From Escherichia phage humlepung: DNA of 64,000 nt. The stretch is from sequence record MN850564.1; one strand, given 5' to 3'. Position numbers and translations under genes: made by a program. Below are positions 22,033-27,723 of this stretch, one piece after another; the first letter of the stretch is position 1; every line of letters starts with the position of its first letter. The notes beneath the pieces were generated by a model. It made no database searches and was not told the origin of the DNA. It saw nothing but the letters and a program-made list of their open reading frames with translations.

Positions 22033-23133
22033 TTACTCATAATCCCTAATAACTAGCCCGACAGGGAACTGTAAAGAACCCTTACGAGTCATCTTCTGGA
22101 ACTGTACCGTTAAAGGCTTCCCGATAAACTCTTCAGGATGCTCAGCAAGATACTGTTTCTTCTCATGAGTAGTCTTCCATGATACATCTACAAAGACGTT
22201 AGGAAGAGTCTCTACAACGAACTTACCATGACCACGTTTATCAGTCTTTACACCAGTCACTTTAAACTCTTCAGTGTGCATCTTCTTGTGCTTAATCAAG
22301 AAGTATGAACGGTGACCACACTCATAGAAAGATTCTTCAGAGATTGAACGGTACATTGCACCTTCAAACTTAGCTTCAACCCACTTATCATGAGCTTCAT
22401 CAAATTCTTCCCAAGAATTTACACGACGAGACTTAACAGGAACAACTTTACAGCCATCTCTAAAGTCATTCAATGGTGAAGTCTCAATAATATCTCTACG
22501 CTCAGGCCACGTCTTAGTGCTGTCACAGATATCGTACCAGTAGAACTGGAGTAGATGTCGGTCTGGATTGTCAGCATTTTTAATCATAGACACAATATCT
22601 TCTAAGTCCCAACCATGAGCATAAATCTCACCATCAAAGTCTTCGACTTGTGGATGCAATTTAAGCAACAAAAGCAAATCTGGGATTAGTTCTGCTGGGA
22701 CGTTGTAAATAGTATTCTCACGAGAATAAGCCGTGAAGCTAACTAAATCAGCATCTCTTGAGATTCTACAACGTACACCATCAAGTTTTGGTTGAGCATC
22801 AGCAGGGAACTTCAGATACTTTGCATGACTAACCTTTGCAGCATCATGAGCAAGCTGTACACCTACCTTCTCAGTATTCTGTGCAGACTCTTTTGTGTAA
22901 GCATAACCTTTACGGTCAACTTGCTTTTTATACTTAGCAGCAACTTCAAAGAGAGCTTGCTGTTCAGCGTTACGCTCATTCTTTTTACCGATGTTCTTAG
23001 GCTCTGCTGTATACTCTTCAAACATCATCTTGCCATTCTCTTTACCATAGGTTGTAATAACTTTGTCACCTACAGCAACACATGACCAGACGTTGAAGGA
23101 ACCATCTTTATTTTGTTTGTACAGAATTGTCAT
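22033..23133 (-). CDS. ATP-dependent DNA ligase
   Basis: KLDGVRC motif I (KxDG); start set to ATG 23133 with GAGG RBS rather than track start 23169. Confidence 0.75.
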   Translation of the reverse strand: MTILYKQNKDGSFNVWSCVAVGDKVITTYGKENGKMMFEEYTAEPKNIGKKNERNAEQQALFEVAAKYKKQVDRKGYAYTKESAQNTEKVGVQLAHDAAKVSHAKYLKFPADAQPKLDGVRCRISRDADLVSFTAYSRENTIYNVPAELIPDLLLLLKLHPQVEDFDGEIYAHGWDLEDIVSMIKNADNPDRHLLQFYWYDICDSTKTWPERRDIIETSPLNDFRDGCKVVPVKSRRVNSWEEFDEAHDKWVEAKFEGAMYRSISEESFYECGHRSYFLIKHKKMHTEEFKVTGVKTDKRGHGKFVVETLPNVFVDVSWKTTHEKKQYLAEHPEEFIGKPLTVQFQKMTRKGSLQFPVGLVIRDYE

Positions 23134-23326
23134 TTTTAACCTCTGAGTGATACCAAGTATTGCAAGCATTACATGCGTAAAGCTCTAAGTCATTTTTATC
23201 TGGTTTGTGGAAACAGTTTGACCCACAACGACACCGGAATAGCTTACCATCAACACGAAGAATGAATGTTTCAAGCTCACCATCTTCTGTAAGAACTGCG
23301 TTCTTAAATTTATCTTCTACAGTCAT
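23108..23326 (-). CDS. small Cys-rich hypothetical protein
   Basis: 72 aa; CRCGSNCFH...CNACN zinc-ribbon-like. Confidence 0.45.
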   Translation of the reverse strand: MTVEDKFKNAVLTEDGELETFILRVDGKLFRCRCGSNCFHKPDKNDLELYACNACNTWYHSEVKNDNSVQTK

Positions 23327-23529
23327 TTTCTCTTACCACCAATCTCTACGTCGATAACTTGAACATCGCCAGCAACATCAAACTTATGAATGATGCTTTC
23401 CACAGTGTAAGTCCAACCCTCAATGCGAACCAACTCACCTTCTCGTGGGACGATTGGATTACGTTGAGCTACGGTTGTAGTGGAGTGAACAACATCATAA
23501 CAATAGATGTAGTTTACTAAGACTTCCAT
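23323..23529 (-). CDS. small hypothetical protein
   Basis: 68 aa from ATG 23529 with GAGGT RBS (the longer track ORF overlaps the lipoprotein gene). Confidence 0.4.
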   Translation of the reverse strand: MEVLVNYIYCYDVVHSTTTVAQRNPIVPREGELVRIEGWTYTVESIIHKFDVAGDVQVIDVEIGGKRK

Positions 23530-23539
23530 CGTGAAAACC

Positions 23540-23809
23540 TCACTCAATAACCGTAGTGTGTGATTGACCATTTTTGCCATAGCTATAAGATGTTGTTGTT
23601 TGGGAGTTTGGACATCTGACAACAACAATATCTCTGCTTATAGCATCACCATGTAACTTGTATACTTTGCAATCTTGCATCTCTGGTGGGAGACTGTAAG
23701 AAGCATTTTTATCTTCATAAGAAGGGTTGCAGCCAGATAGAAAAACAACACCAAGCGCAATTACTGCTTTCCACATAATACTTCCCCAGAGACTGTACAT
23801 TTTCTTCAT
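23540..23809 (-). CDS. lipoprotein (lipobox LSGC)
   Basis: 89 aa; N-terminus MKKMYSLWGSIMWKAVIALGVVFLSGC with lipobox Cys; RBS GGAG. Confidence 0.5.
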   Translation of the reverse strand: MKKMYSLWGSIMWKAVIALGVVFLSGCNPSYEDKNASYSLPPEMQDCKVYKLHGDAISRDIVVVRCPNSQTTTSYSYGKNGQSHTTVIE

Positions 23810-24024
23810 AGCAACTCCAGAATATCAATACGTTCGCCCTTAAGGACTCCAGTACGGTCTCTTGCAATCTTGCCGTCAACAATAAGGATATGTGCAGCCC
23901 TTAAAGAGTCACTATTAAAAGCTTTTACGAACTTACTAGGCATCACTACAATGGGCATCTCCTGAATCAACTCTGGAGTATAGCAATTGTCGTGAAGTTG
24001 CTGAATAACGTCTGCAAGTGTCAT
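23806..24024 (-). CDS. small hypothetical protein
   Basis: 72 aa from ATG 24024 (track start is TTG at 24039); RBS GGAGA. Confidence 0.45.
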   Translation of the reverse strand: MTLADVIQQLHDNCYTPELIQEMPIVVMPSKFVKAFNSDSLRAAHILIVDGKIARDRTGVLKGERIDILELL

Positions 24025-24230
24025 TTTTGATGTCTCCAATACTCAATGTCAATAAGTTCTTGTGCAATGCTTTTAAGGTTACCTTTCAAGAAAACCTTCT
24101 CAGAACCTGAAAGAGATGAATTGTCAATTAACCTGTTCATTCTCTCAAACAACTTCTGCTTACGATTTTTGATAGTCTCCTTTGAAGCACCTTTCATCAT
24201 TGCTGCATGGGTTCTTCCACGATGGCTCAT
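24021..24230 (-). CDS. small basic hypothetical protein
   Basis: 69 aa; strong RBS AGGAGGG. Confidence 0.5.
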   Translation of the reverse strand: MSHRGRTHAAMMKGASKETIKNRKQKLFERMNRLIDNSSLSGSEKVFLKGNLKSIAQELIDIEYWRHQK

Positions 24231-24281
24231 AATCCCTCCTATACAAGATGTAGTATAAGGTACTCTTCCCTGAGCACCTTG

Positions 24282-24785
24282 TCAACTTAGTTTTGCAAAC
24301 TCTCCGTGGAGTTTAATAGCAGCTTCACAGTAAGCTTTATGGGCTTCTTCTGGTGTGTCAAATAAACCAAGTGATGTCCTTTTACCTCTGCATGTTATAG
24401 CTGCCCTCCACTTATTGCAGTCTTTAAAGTAATGTACACCCTTGTAACCTGATTTGTTAGTCGTCTGCTTTACCCTATTTTGAGCATTTCCGTATTTATC
24501 AGTCTCCCTAAGATTAGAAATGTGATTATTACTTCTGTTACCATCAATGTGGTCTATCATCTTAGTGGGTTTGTAACCATGTTCGAACCACCAAACGAGG
24601 TGATGAATTTTTATTACGACATCTTTGAATTTAAGTACTTTGTAACCGTAAGCATCAGCACCTCCTGCAATCTGCCCAGCTTTAGCTTGTCTATTCCTGT
24701 CATACTTGTTGTAGAAGACCCCTTTGTCGGGGTCGTAAATAAAATTATCCTTGTAGTCTTGAAGTGTTAGTGTACGGCGTACCAT
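24282..24785 (-). CDS. HNH homing endonuclease with AP2-like DNA-binding domain
   Basis: IDHIDGNRSNNHISNLRE (HNH) plus YKGVHYFKDCNKWRAAI...LGLFDTPEEAHKAY (AP2-like); start overlaps the 3-prime end of the polymerase gene. Confidence 0.6.
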   Translation of the reverse strand: MVRRTLTLQDYKDNFIYDPDKGVFYNKYDRNRQAKAGQIAGGADAYGYKVLKFKDVVIKIHHLVWWFEHGYKPTKMIDHIDGNRSNNHISNLRETDKYGNAQNRVKQTTNKSGYKGVHYFKDCNKWRAAITCRGKRTSLGLFDTPEEAHKAYCEAAIKLHGEFAKLS

Positions 24786-27466
24786 GTCTTACCTACCTTA
24801 CCAGTGCCTGTAACAAGCGTCTTACTCTTTAATCCAAGATTTTTTGATGCTTGACCATACATTCTATCAATAATCTCCTTAACATCAGGTACATCTTTGG
24901 TTGGAACCTCTAAAGAGACCTCATCGTGGTAACTACAGACCCACCTAGCACCAATAGCTGGCTTCCTACCATTTAGAACTGTAAGCTTGCGCTCTGTTAA
25001 CTCCCTGTTAGCCAAGTTAATACCCTCATTCTGCACCTGCGCCTCACTGCCCATAAGTGTGTAATTCAATAACTTATGTGGAGATTTACACCATAACCAC
25101 GCCCCAGCAACCTTGATATAGCCACCTTTTGCAATTGCAGAAGTCTTTCCGAAAACCTCTTCAAGTGCTTTCTTAGTTGCTTTGAAGTCTTCCTCTAGTC
25201 TATCAAGCAGCTTTTTAATCTTAGGTAGACGCACAAAGTAAGTTTGTTTAGTCAATGCACCCTCTTCCGTAGATGATGCCTTGATAGTTTTTGCAAACTT
25301 CTCGTCTCCGGCTCCAAATAACAGGGCGTAGATGCCATTTTTGCTCTTCTTACGACCTTTTGTAATCTCGTGGAGAAGTTCCTCATCCTGTGTCTCCCTG
25401 CAACGAACAATATCCTCTTCTTTGTTAAGACCAAAGTAAATACTGTTCAGTGTATGCGCATCAGTCCCTGTGTAGACTTCATAGAGGTCATTTTCAGCAT
25501 CATAACGCAGATACTTGTCAGTTTCTGGGTTAAGATACTTGTCAAGATGTTTACAGTAGTATCTACCATCATCTTGCTTAGTGAACTCTACTGACTCTTT
25601 ACCCTCAGTTACCGCTTTAGTGAAGTCTTCATCACCCATAAAGTTACAAAGAAGAACTAGCTGGGCTGAGTTTTGGTCTACGGAGATGATATCTGTACCA
25701 TCTTCACAAGTCCACACCTCCCTCATAGGTGCTCCATAGACAGCAGCACCAGACGGTACGTTTACAATACCATATTGTGTCATACGTCCAGTTGAAGTGC
25801 CAAACACCATTGCACCAGCACTAAGGCGACCATCAGGACGAATCTGGTTCAACCAACCTTTTTCATCATCCTTTGAGTTCTCAATAGTTCTGCGTCGGTG
25901 CATCAAAGTATAGTACTTAGCAATCTTCTGTCCAAGCTCACCTTCAATCGTATCATAAGATGATTCAGTAAGTTTTGGTGAAGTACGGATTAAGCAAGGT
26001 TCAAGCAAATCTGTGTATTTCTTCACAGACCAGTTATGCTCGATGTACTGTACACCTTCATGTTCAACATAACTCAAACCACACCGCTCAACCATTTCCT
26101 GCCACTTAGGATGCTTTGTAATCATCTTTTTATTGTCTTTGAAACGACAAACTTTGATAGGGCGACCATCTGAGTCTTTCTTGTAATTCCAGTCATCTGG
26201 AATCCAACCAACTGATTTCAAGTAGTCTTTAACAACTGCTACCTGAGTCATACGAGAAACTTCAAACTCAATTGGTGTATATGGTGCATCAATCAAACCT
26301 GTGTAGCGACTTGACTCAAGTTCAAAGTGATTGACAACGTGACTGTTATAGTACTTCACAGTCTTGACTGTTTTTACTGGTTTCCAGTCTTTGCATTTTT
26401 TGCCAATCTTTGCATTCAACTCGTTGCAGATTGCACGAGCATCCTTCATCGCTACAAAACCCTCTTTGTACTCTTCACCAGTTACAGAGTTGGTTGGTGT
26501 ATAGCAATTTCTCTTTTCAATGTTAAAAATCTTTGTAGTTGGCTTACCAAATGGTTTGATTTCATAAGTCTGCATCTCACCATTACGTACCTGCTGACGA
26601 TACTTTGTCTTAGGGTACTTGGTAATTCTCTTCAGTCCATCTGCATGACCAAATGTTTCAACATACTCATTCCAAGCTTTTGCAAACTCTTCTCCAGTGA
26701 CTTTACCTTTGGTCTTAATAGTTGGAGGAAGATGTGGTTCAACCTCTGAAGCAAGTTCATTAGTCAATTTGTCAAGCTCCTTTACATGGAACTCCATAAG
26801 CTCCTTATCAGCTTTCCAACCATTGATAGCTTGCTGGCTCATCCAGAAAGATGTCTCTTTAGCTCGCATGTAAGTCTCATAAGTGTCTATACCACACTTC
26901 TTAAGCTTGAGATACTCGTTATCAAGTGCCCGTTTAGTTTTGGCATTAATACGGATATCTTCTACAACACGAGTGAAGATTTCTGCATTCCACACACCCC
27001 AATGTTCAATCTCTGGTTTACGGACACCAACACGAGCACCCCATGCAGCCAAACCATGAGCACCTTTATAACCCTTTGGGGTTGGCCTATCCATCCACTG
27101 AACACGAGACTGGATAAGAGAGTCCTGAAAGAAATTACTCCACGGTTTACACTTTGGATTATCAAAGTTCCATAAATCAGGTGCAATGTGATTGAAAACC
27201 CACCAGTCATAACCGAGACCATTATGGATGCAAAGACGTTTTGCCTTTAACGCAAATTCAACACCTTCACGTAAACCACCTTTGATGTACTTAGTGTACT
27301 TGTGACCGAGGATAGGCTCATCTGTAAAGACCCATACAGGTGGCTCTTCATCGTCAGATTTATAGTCTGCAAAGGCCATTACGTGAACTTTAGTGAACTC
27401 AAGGAGTAAACCATCAGTTTCTGTATCACCAACCAAATGTAAGTTTTTAAAATCTACGTTTTCCAT
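24767..27466 (-). CDS. DNA polymerase, family A (3-prime-5-prime exonuclease plus polymerase)
   Basis: 899 aa from ATG 27466 (RBS AGGGAG); DTETDGL exo motif, K...YG motif B (KNGIYALLFGAG), HDE motif C. Confidence 0.85.
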   Translation of the reverse strand: MENVDFKNLHLVGDTETDGLLLEFTKVHVMAFADYKSDDEEPPVWVFTDEPILGHKYTKYIKGGLREGVEFALKAKRLCIHNGLGYDWWVFNHIAPDLWNFDNPKCKPWSNFFQDSLIQSRVQWMDRPTPKGYKGAHGLAAWGARVGVRKPEIEHWGVWNAEIFTRVVEDIRINAKTKRALDNEYLKLKKCGIDTYETYMRAKETSFWMSQQAINGWKADKELMEFHVKELDKLTNELASEVEPHLPPTIKTKGKVTGEEFAKAWNEYVETFGHADGLKRITKYPKTKYRQQVRNGEMQTYEIKPFGKPTTKIFNIEKRNCYTPTNSVTGEEYKEGFVAMKDARAICNELNAKIGKKCKDWKPVKTVKTVKYYNSHVVNHFELESSRYTGLIDAPYTPIEFEVSRMTQVAVVKDYLKSVGWIPDDWNYKKDSDGRPIKVCRFKDNKKMITKHPKWQEMVERCGLSYVEHEGVQYIEHNWSVKKYTDLLEPCLIRTSPKLTESSYDTIEGELGQKIAKYYTLMHRRRTIENSKDDEKGWLNQIRPDGRLSAGAMVFGTSTGRMTQYGIVNVPSGAAVYGAPMREVWTCEDGTDIISVDQNSAQLVLLCNFMGDEDFTKAVTEGKESVEFTKQDDGRYYCKHLDKYLNPETDKYLRYDAENDLYEVYTGTDAHTLNSIYFGLNKEEDIVRCRETQDEELLHEITKGRKKSKNGIYALLFGAGDEKFAKTIKASSTEEGALTKQTYFVRLPKIKKLLDRLEEDFKATKKALEEVFGKTSAIAKGGYIKVAGAWLWCKSPHKLLNYTLMGSEAQVQNEGINLANRELTERKLTVLNGRKPAIGARWVCSYHDEVSLEVPTKDVPDVKEIIDRMYGQASKNLGLKSKTLVTGTGKVGKTWYAVH

Positions 27467-27723
27467 TTTTACTCCCTCTAAAATCATTAACCTCATACAT
27501 TACTGCAAAAAATTATAAAAAGCAAGTTGACAATGTACTTGACAAGGTGTTAATCTTTGCGAAGTGGGTTTTTACTTAAAAGGTCACTTAACAGTTTAAC
27601 TATACAGATACTTTAAAACTCTTAAAAGATTATTTAATAGCTTTTAAAAAGCTTTAAAGTATAACGTATAGAATACGTTAAGATAAAAGATTAAAACTTA
27701 ATAGTTACTTAAAAGAGGCTTAC
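27467..27723. promoter_or_regulatory. divergent intergenic control region with palindromic operator-like sites
   Basis: Between divergent pol and plus-strand operons; TTGACA x2; palindromes AGCTTTTAAAAAGCT and AACGTATAGAATACGTT (the latter contains a TATAGAAT -10-like element). Confidence 0.5.

Follow-up and report, generated by a model that had tools for sequence, protein, structure and literature searches.

The DNA analysed here is a 64,000-nucleotide (nt) stretch of a Felixounavirus, Escherichia phage humlepung (sequence record MN850564.1; hereafter, the window, 64 kb), and the element in question is a free-standing gene for an HNH-AP2 endonuclease that overlaps the 3' end of the phage DNA polymerase gene. 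Gene coordinates are given on the minus strand. The endonuclease gene (24282..24785) is an open reading frame (ORF) of 167 amino acids (aa) with an ATG start, assigned by Pfam and PHROG and named class A, and the polymerase gene (24767..27496) is an uninterrupted ORF of 909 aa encoding a family-A (T7-like) DNA polymerase (PF00476; PHROG 17 at 8.5e-113). Reading of the sequence placed the polymerase stop codon TAA at 24769-24767 and the endonuclease ATG at 24785-24783, resulting in an overlap of exactly 19 nt (24767..24785), in which endonuclease codons 1-6 lie within the last polymerase codons in a different frame. A sequence-only reading of the window that preceded this analysis had assigned the gene these coordinates and this overlap and had described it as free-standing, and it was correct on each point: the gene has its own start and stop, is in a frame unlike that of the polymerase, and is not within an intron or intein. 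The 19-nt overlap was also found in 15/15 class-A loci examined, and in the loci L075 and L083.

A Shine-Dalgarno-like sequence, AAGGTAGG (24792..24799), lies inside the polymerase codons K-V-G, 6 nt 5' of the endonuclease ATG, and may act as the ribosome-binding site of the endonuclease gene. Because no promoter of its own was seen upstream of the endonuclease gene and its start codon is inside the polymerase gene, the gene is probably expressed from the polymerase transcript, that is, by co-transcription with the polymerase gene. The right-hand insertion junction coincides with a promoter-like sequence, TTGACA-N22-TATACT (24252..24285), which lies ahead of small downstream genes and is conserved in 43/43 loci. 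The endonuclease stop codon TGA (24282-24284) sits within the TTGACA box (24280-24285), as it does in every occupied site. A sigma-70 scan did not call TTGACA-N22-TATACT because of its 22-nt spacer, and no terminator was found after the endonuclease gene. The two grounds on which this sequence may be regarded as a promoter are its conservation and the label 'promoter' given to it by the authors of the AYO145A record, and we refer to it as promoter-like. The last 70 nt of the endonuclease gene (24282..24351) are nearly unchanged across allele classes and form the right edge of the class-specific segment.

The sequence-only reading had also proposed that HNH and AP2 domains are combined in one protein, and both domains were confirmed with Pfam scores above the curated cut-offs. 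The HNH_3 nuclease core (residues 60-98; 24492..24608), containing D78, H79, N87, and N91, scored 44.8 bits (cut-off, 24.8), and the AP2 DNA-binding domain (PF00847; residues 112-161; 24303..24452), which was also recovered in the predicted model, scored 41.3 bits (cut-off, 33.3); in addition, the protein matched PHROG 99, 'HNH endonuclease', at 7e-63. When the family profile was compared with the PDB, the N-terminal half matched I-HmuI (1U3E; 2.1e-8), aligning to I-HmuI residues 27-102, and plant AP2 domains were matched as well (WRI1, 5.7e-13; AtERF1, 3e-5). An AlphaFold2 model was built from 37 homologues with a predicted local distance difference test score (pLDDT) of 93.7, and its best Foldseek match was also I-HmuI (1u3e; probability 1.00, E = 1.1e-4, 17% sequence identity). 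The modelled AP2 domain consists of three strands and a helix (E117-120, E125-132, E135-142, H145-163), and this half of the model could be laid over the AP2 domains of AtERF1 and TEM1 at 1.3-1.4 A (51-54 aligned columns); the nuclease half contains a modelled beta-beta-alpha metal finger (strands 76-79 and 92-95, followed by helix 97-101). In alignments of 37 and 42 sequences, H79 and N91 were invariant and D78, N87, and N103 were at least 90% conserved, with N100 and N103 located just past the HNH_3 core; by our own count from the profile alignment, H79, N91, and N100 correspond to H75, N87, and N96 of I-HmuI. The catalytic core residues are retained in all endonuclease classes. Within class A, the ratio of nonsynonymous to synonymous substitution rates (dN/dS) of the endonuclease was 0.06-0.16, and the gene is under purifying selection. 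By profile and model, the protein is an HNH (His-Me finger) nuclease with an AP2 DNA-binding domain, for which metal-dependent nicking or cleavage of DNA and sequence-specific binding are predicted.

Over the region 23000-27600, the window shares 96.5% identity with Felix O1 and 98% with phages momo and pinkbiff, and its endonuclease gene is the same gene as ORF218 of Felix O1 (99% aa identity, same position, same 19-nt overlap). The occupancy of the site was surveyed in 29 Felix-like IMG/VR contigs, all colinear at the locus. The sequence-only reading had taken the gene to be an insertion and had suggested a comparison with relatives lacking it; such relatives were found, the site being empty in 12/29 contigs and in the outgroups, and occupied by an HNH-AP2 gene in 17/29. 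The gene is thus subject to presence/absence polymorphism and is not common to all relatives, because 12 of the 29 have a precise empty site, in which the polymerase stop TAA is followed by 5-6 nt and then TTGACAAGGTGCTCA, which contains the TTGACA box. Among the more distant Ounavirinae, no such gene was present after the polymerase gene in L028-L030 and L033. The occupied sites carry at least six endonuclease classes that are 37-48% identical to the window protein and to one another; the C-terminal 26 aa (~70 nt) are nearly invariant across the classes, and the remainder is 37-47% identical. The 3' 70 nt of the window gene were 100% identical in many GenBank records carrying other classes. 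Full-length intact ORFs were found at 17/17 occupied IMG/VR sites and at 15/15 class-A loci. Among GenBank phages, the downstream region was present in 274 records, at least the conserved endonuclease 3' end in 154 of these 274, and full-length class A in 17. About 41-44% of close relatives are without the gene, yet keep the promoter-like box and the polymerase, and the gene is therefore dispensable.

Within the 64-kb window, no paralogue of the endonuclease was detected by tblastn or by a search of 341 ORFs with the family hidden Markov model. No anomaly in base composition was found over the gene, and there is therefore no compositional sign of recent foreign origin. A 5-nt sequence, ACTAA, is present at both insertion ends (24767-24771 and 24286-24290, minus strand), in the contexts GTACACTAA where the polymerase gene stops and AAACTAAGTTGACA where the endonuclease gene ends, and empty sites read ACACTAATTAGTATTGACA; the pair could be a relic of the first insertion event or could have arisen by chance.

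To define the relationship between the endonuclease and the polymerase end, we compared 43 polymerase genes, comprising 15 from class-A loci and 28 others, which align without insertions or deletions because each is 2730 nt long once the intron carried by some of them is removed. In the core (pol nt 600-1700, numbered along the polymerase gene), the 36 loci of the genus formed a single cluster at about 96% identity, whereas in the 3' end (pol nt 2290-2727) the same 36 loci separated into clusters with 66-87% identity between them. The 15 class-A carriers formed one cluster in the 3' end, with 96% internal identity and 66-69% identity to 28/28 others, and this A-type haplotype (pol nt 2290-2730; 24767..25207) was found only alongside the class-A endonuclease (15/15 class-A loci vs 0/28 others). 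Since the type of the window in pol nt 1800-2172 is common to class-A, class-E, and some empty-site genomes and the 3' end is private, the class-A-specific tract begins around pol nt 2290-2460. A GenBank search with the last 834 nt of the polymerase gave a bimodal result, in which 17 records were at least 91.9% identical and the remainder were mostly about 77-81% identical, and the 17 records with the A-type end were the 17 class-A carriers. Outside class-A carriers, nothing closer than about 80% was found in GenBank as a donor of this end, and its nearest other context is a Mooglevirus-like contig carrying a related class, A'.

Differences fixed between the A-linked and all other alleles numbered 51, and 39 of them fell in pol nt 2461-2640 (24857..25036), which flank polymerase motif C, while the codons of its YHDE sequence (24920-24931) were conserved; this segment is a candidate for the target of the enzyme or for the site of immunity to it. 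In the 3' block, the proportion of synonymous differences (pS) between A and the others was 0.72-0.84, which is saturated, against a dS of 0.19-0.29 in the core, and dN was 0.20-0.28 in the block vs 0.001-0.003 in the core. For 8/15 class-A carriers, the nearest neighbour in pol nt 1-1740 was non-A, and the carriers were monophyletic only in pol nt 2290-2727. The Mooglevirus-like contig (L075, metagenomic) was 93-99% identical to the Citrobacter phage Michonne type in pol nt 1-1800 and, at the corresponding position, carried the class-A' gene (85% aa identity), which again overlaps the polymerase gene by 19 nt; the motif-C flank of this contig, RWVCSYHDEVSLEVP, is of the A type. A scan of viral and metagenome collections for the A-type motif-C pattern returned 4 contigs, 4/4 with class A. 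Judging from these comparisons, the class-A module has spread horizontally across unrelated backbones and into another genus, and the data lend correlative support to the co-conversion of flanking markers with the gene. The sequence-only reading had raised the idea that such an enzyme acts on the allelic polymerase sequence and drives marker exclusion in co-infection, and the idea fits the data in that class A is linked to a divergent polymerase 3' haplotype and the backbones of its carriers are polyphyletic.

We consider it probable, on the basis of the sequence comparisons and the predicted model, that the gene specifies a free-standing homing endonuclease, active now or until very recently, and spreads along with the polymerase end next to it. 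Translation of the enzyme from the polymerase transcript would rely on the start codon and the putative ribosome-binding site that lie among the final codons of the polymerase gene. On co-infection with a Felixounavirus that has an empty site or another allele, the enzyme would nick or cut the rival genome no more than a few hundred bases from the insertion site, and recombinational repair would copy the carrier's endonuclease gene along with ~180-450 nt of the adjoining polymerase 3' end, with resolution on the right-hand side at the conserved endonuclease 3' end or the promoter-like box. From the present data we infer cleavage, as a nick or a double-strand break, its exact target, and the biased inheritance that would result.

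The arrangement is similar to that of T3 gene 5.3, a free-standing HNH_3 gene (68.2 bits) located 10 nt 3' of the T7-like family-A polymerase gene. Bonocora and Shub reportedly found in 2009 that T3 gene 5.3 cuts polymerase genes that have no intron, doing so at the PhiI/W31 intron site, and that it spreads into empty sites. In the window, about 50 codons separate motif C from the polymerase stop, and the spacing is similar in the T7/T3 polymerase. The PhiI/W31 intron site corresponds to position 881 of Escherichia coli Pol I, in motif C (PMC3428280). In Felixounavirus relatives, no intron was seen at motif C. T3 gp5.3 differs from the window protein in being 101 aa long and having no AP2 domain, and an intron of the I-TslI type differs in that the Felixounavirus intron is in motif B and encodes an Endonuclease_7 that is not a homologue of the free-standing gene. 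Orthology to T3 gp5.3/I-TslI was considered and rejected, with the BLASTP similarity limited to the HNH motif (E = 0.027).

I-HmuI provides the closest solved structure for the nuclease half. I-HmuI-type HNH enzymes nick family-A polymerase genes, and I-HmuI and I-HmuII cut intron-plus and intron-less alleles alike (PMC3428280). According to the account given there of Goodrich-Blair and Shub (1996), competition between the intron endonucleases favours flanking markers, which parallels the presence of competing endonuclease classes at the Felixounavirus site. I-HmuI and I-HmuII differ, however, in being encoded in the SPO1 and SP82 polymerase introns and in having a C-terminal DNA-binding part that is not AP2. 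By analogy, the window protein would work like T3 gp5.3 and the I-HmuI group without being their orthologue.

HNH-AP2 proteins are a described homing-endonuclease family (Magnani 2004, as cited in PMC10448857), and in the survey of Barth, Dunham and Seed (2023, PMC10448857) HNH-AP2 ('IPA-HNH') genes were near polymerase genes in 29% of cases. Genes of this kind replace one another at a fixed position, and nuclease genes are located where exchanged DNA begins or ends (PMC10448857). The window protein shares with IPA-HNH an N-terminal HNH and a C-terminal AP2 domain, and it matches HNH_3 well, whereas the ICP1 genes are too divergent for this Pfam profile (PMC10448857). Homing endonuclease gene (HEG) islands exceed 10 kb and are bracketed by two genes, whereas in the window a single gene is linked to a ~0.45-kb gene fragment.

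With respect to the target, the polymerase motif-C flanks, located 90-270 nt 5' of the polymerase stop and 100-280 nt 5' of the endonuclease start, are the best candidate, which we put forward tentatively. They are favoured because the class-specific differences peak there, not beside the gene, and persist across genera, and because the layout matches that of T3 gene 5.3. The second candidate, which we regard as possible with considerable doubt, is the junction at which the polymerase stop meets the TTGACA box. This junction is disrupted by the insertion and reads ...CACTAA/TTAGTATTGACA... in empty-site DNA; it is favoured because the polymerase ends of classes B, C, and D also occur in empty-site genomes. 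Strict self-immunity would not be needed, since I-HmuI-type enzymes nick and can act on their own allele (PMC3428280). It is also conceivable, in a speculative extension, that competition among endonucleases, involving at least six classes and the nearby intron-borne Endonuclease_7 gene, has diversified the last third of the polymerase by cleavage and escape; this third is 66-87% identical, its synonymous divergence being saturated and its dN about 100-fold higher, in phages that are about 96% identical elsewhere in the gene. If this is true, the A-type and E-type motif-C flanks would be cleavage-resistant immunity alleles locked to their endonuclease, and the polymerase catalytic core would be subject to a competition of the I-HmuI/I-HmuII kind, here among free-standing endonucleases with multiple alleles.

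Several points weigh against an active homing endonuclease that spreads with the polymerase end. The literature searched yielded no enzymatic or genetic data for this protein or any Felixounavirus allele. The polymerase 3' ends that classes B, C, and D have in common with empty-site genomes indicate that the family as a whole does not depend on an immunity allele carried in the polymerase, which favours the junction as the target, or an enzyme that tolerates cuts in its own genome. The counts of linked loci are not independent events, because adjacent segments are linked anyway and many carriers are close relatives. Finally, fixed differences may peak around motif C in part because protein constraint is weaker there than in the last 30 codons.

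One rival explanation is that the gene is a passive passenger, inactive or no longer mobile, in a ~0.9-kb module with the polymerase 3' end that is shuffled by ordinary phage recombination. Felixounavirus genomes are mosaic throughout, the small downstream genes also vary in presence and order, physical adjacency alone would yield the linkage, and classes B, C, and D are without a private polymerase haplotype, all as expected for such a passenger. We nevertheless consider this explanation improbable, given that an intact ORF is present at each of the 17 occupied IMG/VR sites and each of the 15 class-A loci, that the catalytic residues are conserved with a dN/dS of 0.06-0.16, and that the module has moved into another genus at exactly the same site. 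A domesticated function, in which the protein would regulate the promoter-like box in the manner of an AP2 factor, assist the polymerase as an accessory factor, or serve as a packaging HNH protein like HK97 gp74, would be in keeping with the position of the endonuclease stop inside the conserved TTGACA box and with the use of AP2 as a transcription-factor domain in plants. It appears very unlikely, because the 41-44% of close relatives that lack the gene keep both the box and the polymerase, and because the conserved nuclease residues would not be needed by a pure DNA-binding regulator. The HK97 gp74 type of terminase-associated HNH protein was rejected, as the gene is not beside terminase genes and is not conserved in all relatives.

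A further explanation concerns the group I intron that many relatives carry in polymerase motif B (L027:3234-3501, L061, L062, L021-L025, and L074) and that the window is without; at Rfam gathering thresholds, neither an intron nor another RNA family was detected in the window. The intron site corresponds to 25324|25323 of the window (pol nt 2173/2174) and divides codon L725 behind its first base; U is the last base of the 5' exon and G that of the intron, and splicing gives YALLF in the product. The intron occurs in an ORF-less form of 267-268 nt (RF00028, 62 bits in L027) and in a form of 780-805 nt with an Endonuclease_7 ORF (PF02945, 70.9 bits) in a loop. In collaborative homing, as F-CphI is said to perform for the cyanophage psbA intron, the window enzyme would cut the motif-B intron site and mobilise the ORF-less intron of relatives. 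This would suit the location of that intron, 558 nt 5' of the polymerase stop, the presence of a free-standing endonuclease gene at 3/3 loci with the ORF-less intron (L027, L061, and L062), and the haplotype switches near the intron site in L016, L018, L031, and L072-74. We give it little credence, however, as the window and 12/15 class-A loci have no intron, the class-A tract starts about 120-290 nt 3' of the intron site, the segment just 5' of that site is common to class-E and empty-site genomes, and in other relatives the intron bears its own Endonuclease_7 ORF. In several genomes the haplotype changes at the intron site or immediately 3' of it, which suggests intron-associated co-conversion that appears to be independent of the downstream endonuclease gene.

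Returning to the homing endonuclease, the gene itself is already annotated, GenBank records listing it as an HNH or homing endonuclease, and the kind of element is already known. Felix O1 was reported with six HNH endonuclease genes in 2010 (PMC3185647), and a 2013 study described homing endonuclease gene insertions and deletions as what mainly distinguishes Felix O1-like phages from one another (PMC3728262). In the literature searched, Felix O1-type genes appear as annotation only, and neither a target, an activity, the allelic series, nor the linked polymerase haplotype is described. The present analysis defines the empty site exactly, describes the series of alleles, shows that class A is linked exclusively to a hyper-divergent motif-C region of the polymerase, and provides evidence of horizontal spread. 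The gene alone, an annotated member of a described endonuclease family, matters little; the comparison with relatives, in which one class is tied to a private polymerase end of ancient divergence, offers a compact natural example of the way endonuclease genes may shape a phage gene that is essential. Salmonella typing and biocontrol make use of Felix O1-type phages, which are also mixed in cocktails, and the element has some practical relevance because it would be able to bias the inheritance of polymerase alleles in mixed infections. The enzyme could also provide a new site-specific nickase.

The wider family is found in other settings. In Erwinia-type Ounavirinae, an HNH-AP2 homologue (33-34% aa identity) lies directly 5' of the polymerase gene in the same orientation (L028:904-1359 and L029:973-1359), and none was found downstream of the polymerase gene in these two loci. 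Homologues of ~40% identity were found in unrelated phages (L079:4001-4531, L081:4001-4492, and L077:4228-4734), at a tail sheath/tail tube junction, at a junction of capsid-region genes, or surrounded by small genes whose functions are unknown. Because these homologues adjoin tail, capsid, or small unknown genes, the HNH-AP2 family is not polymerase-specific overall, and judging from its genomic settings it is a generalist invader of conserved gene junctions.

Some observations on the surrounding DNA and on the records are added here. Polymerase intron sites have been described at E. coli positions 674, 676, and 881 (PMC3428280), and the Felixounavirus intron site is near E. coli 763/764. GenBank annotates the intron-split polymerase genes as two separate genes. 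In the segment just 5' of the intron site (window about 25697-25325; pol nt 1800-2172), the type of the window is about 75% identical to the common type, and it is also present in FSL SP-010, which has an empty site and contains the intron. Two GenBank records bear labels of unrelated hosts: GU169904 ('Staphylococcus phage SA1', 147 kb) is 96% identical to the region, including the class-A endonuclease gene, and MG065668 ('Campylobacter phage A126') matches part of the endonuclease gene only, at 76%; both contain Felix O1-like DNA, and the records are probably chimeric or mislabelled. The endonuclease gene is neighboured by the polymerase gene on one side and by small early genes near the ligase gene on the other. 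The small genes past the promoter-like box (window 23806-24230; compared in L001-L027) differ in presence, order, and copy number among close relatives, and they comprise members of PHROG 5180 and 4230 and a 35-40% identical paralogue of PHROG 4230, with a similar ribosome-binding sequence before each.

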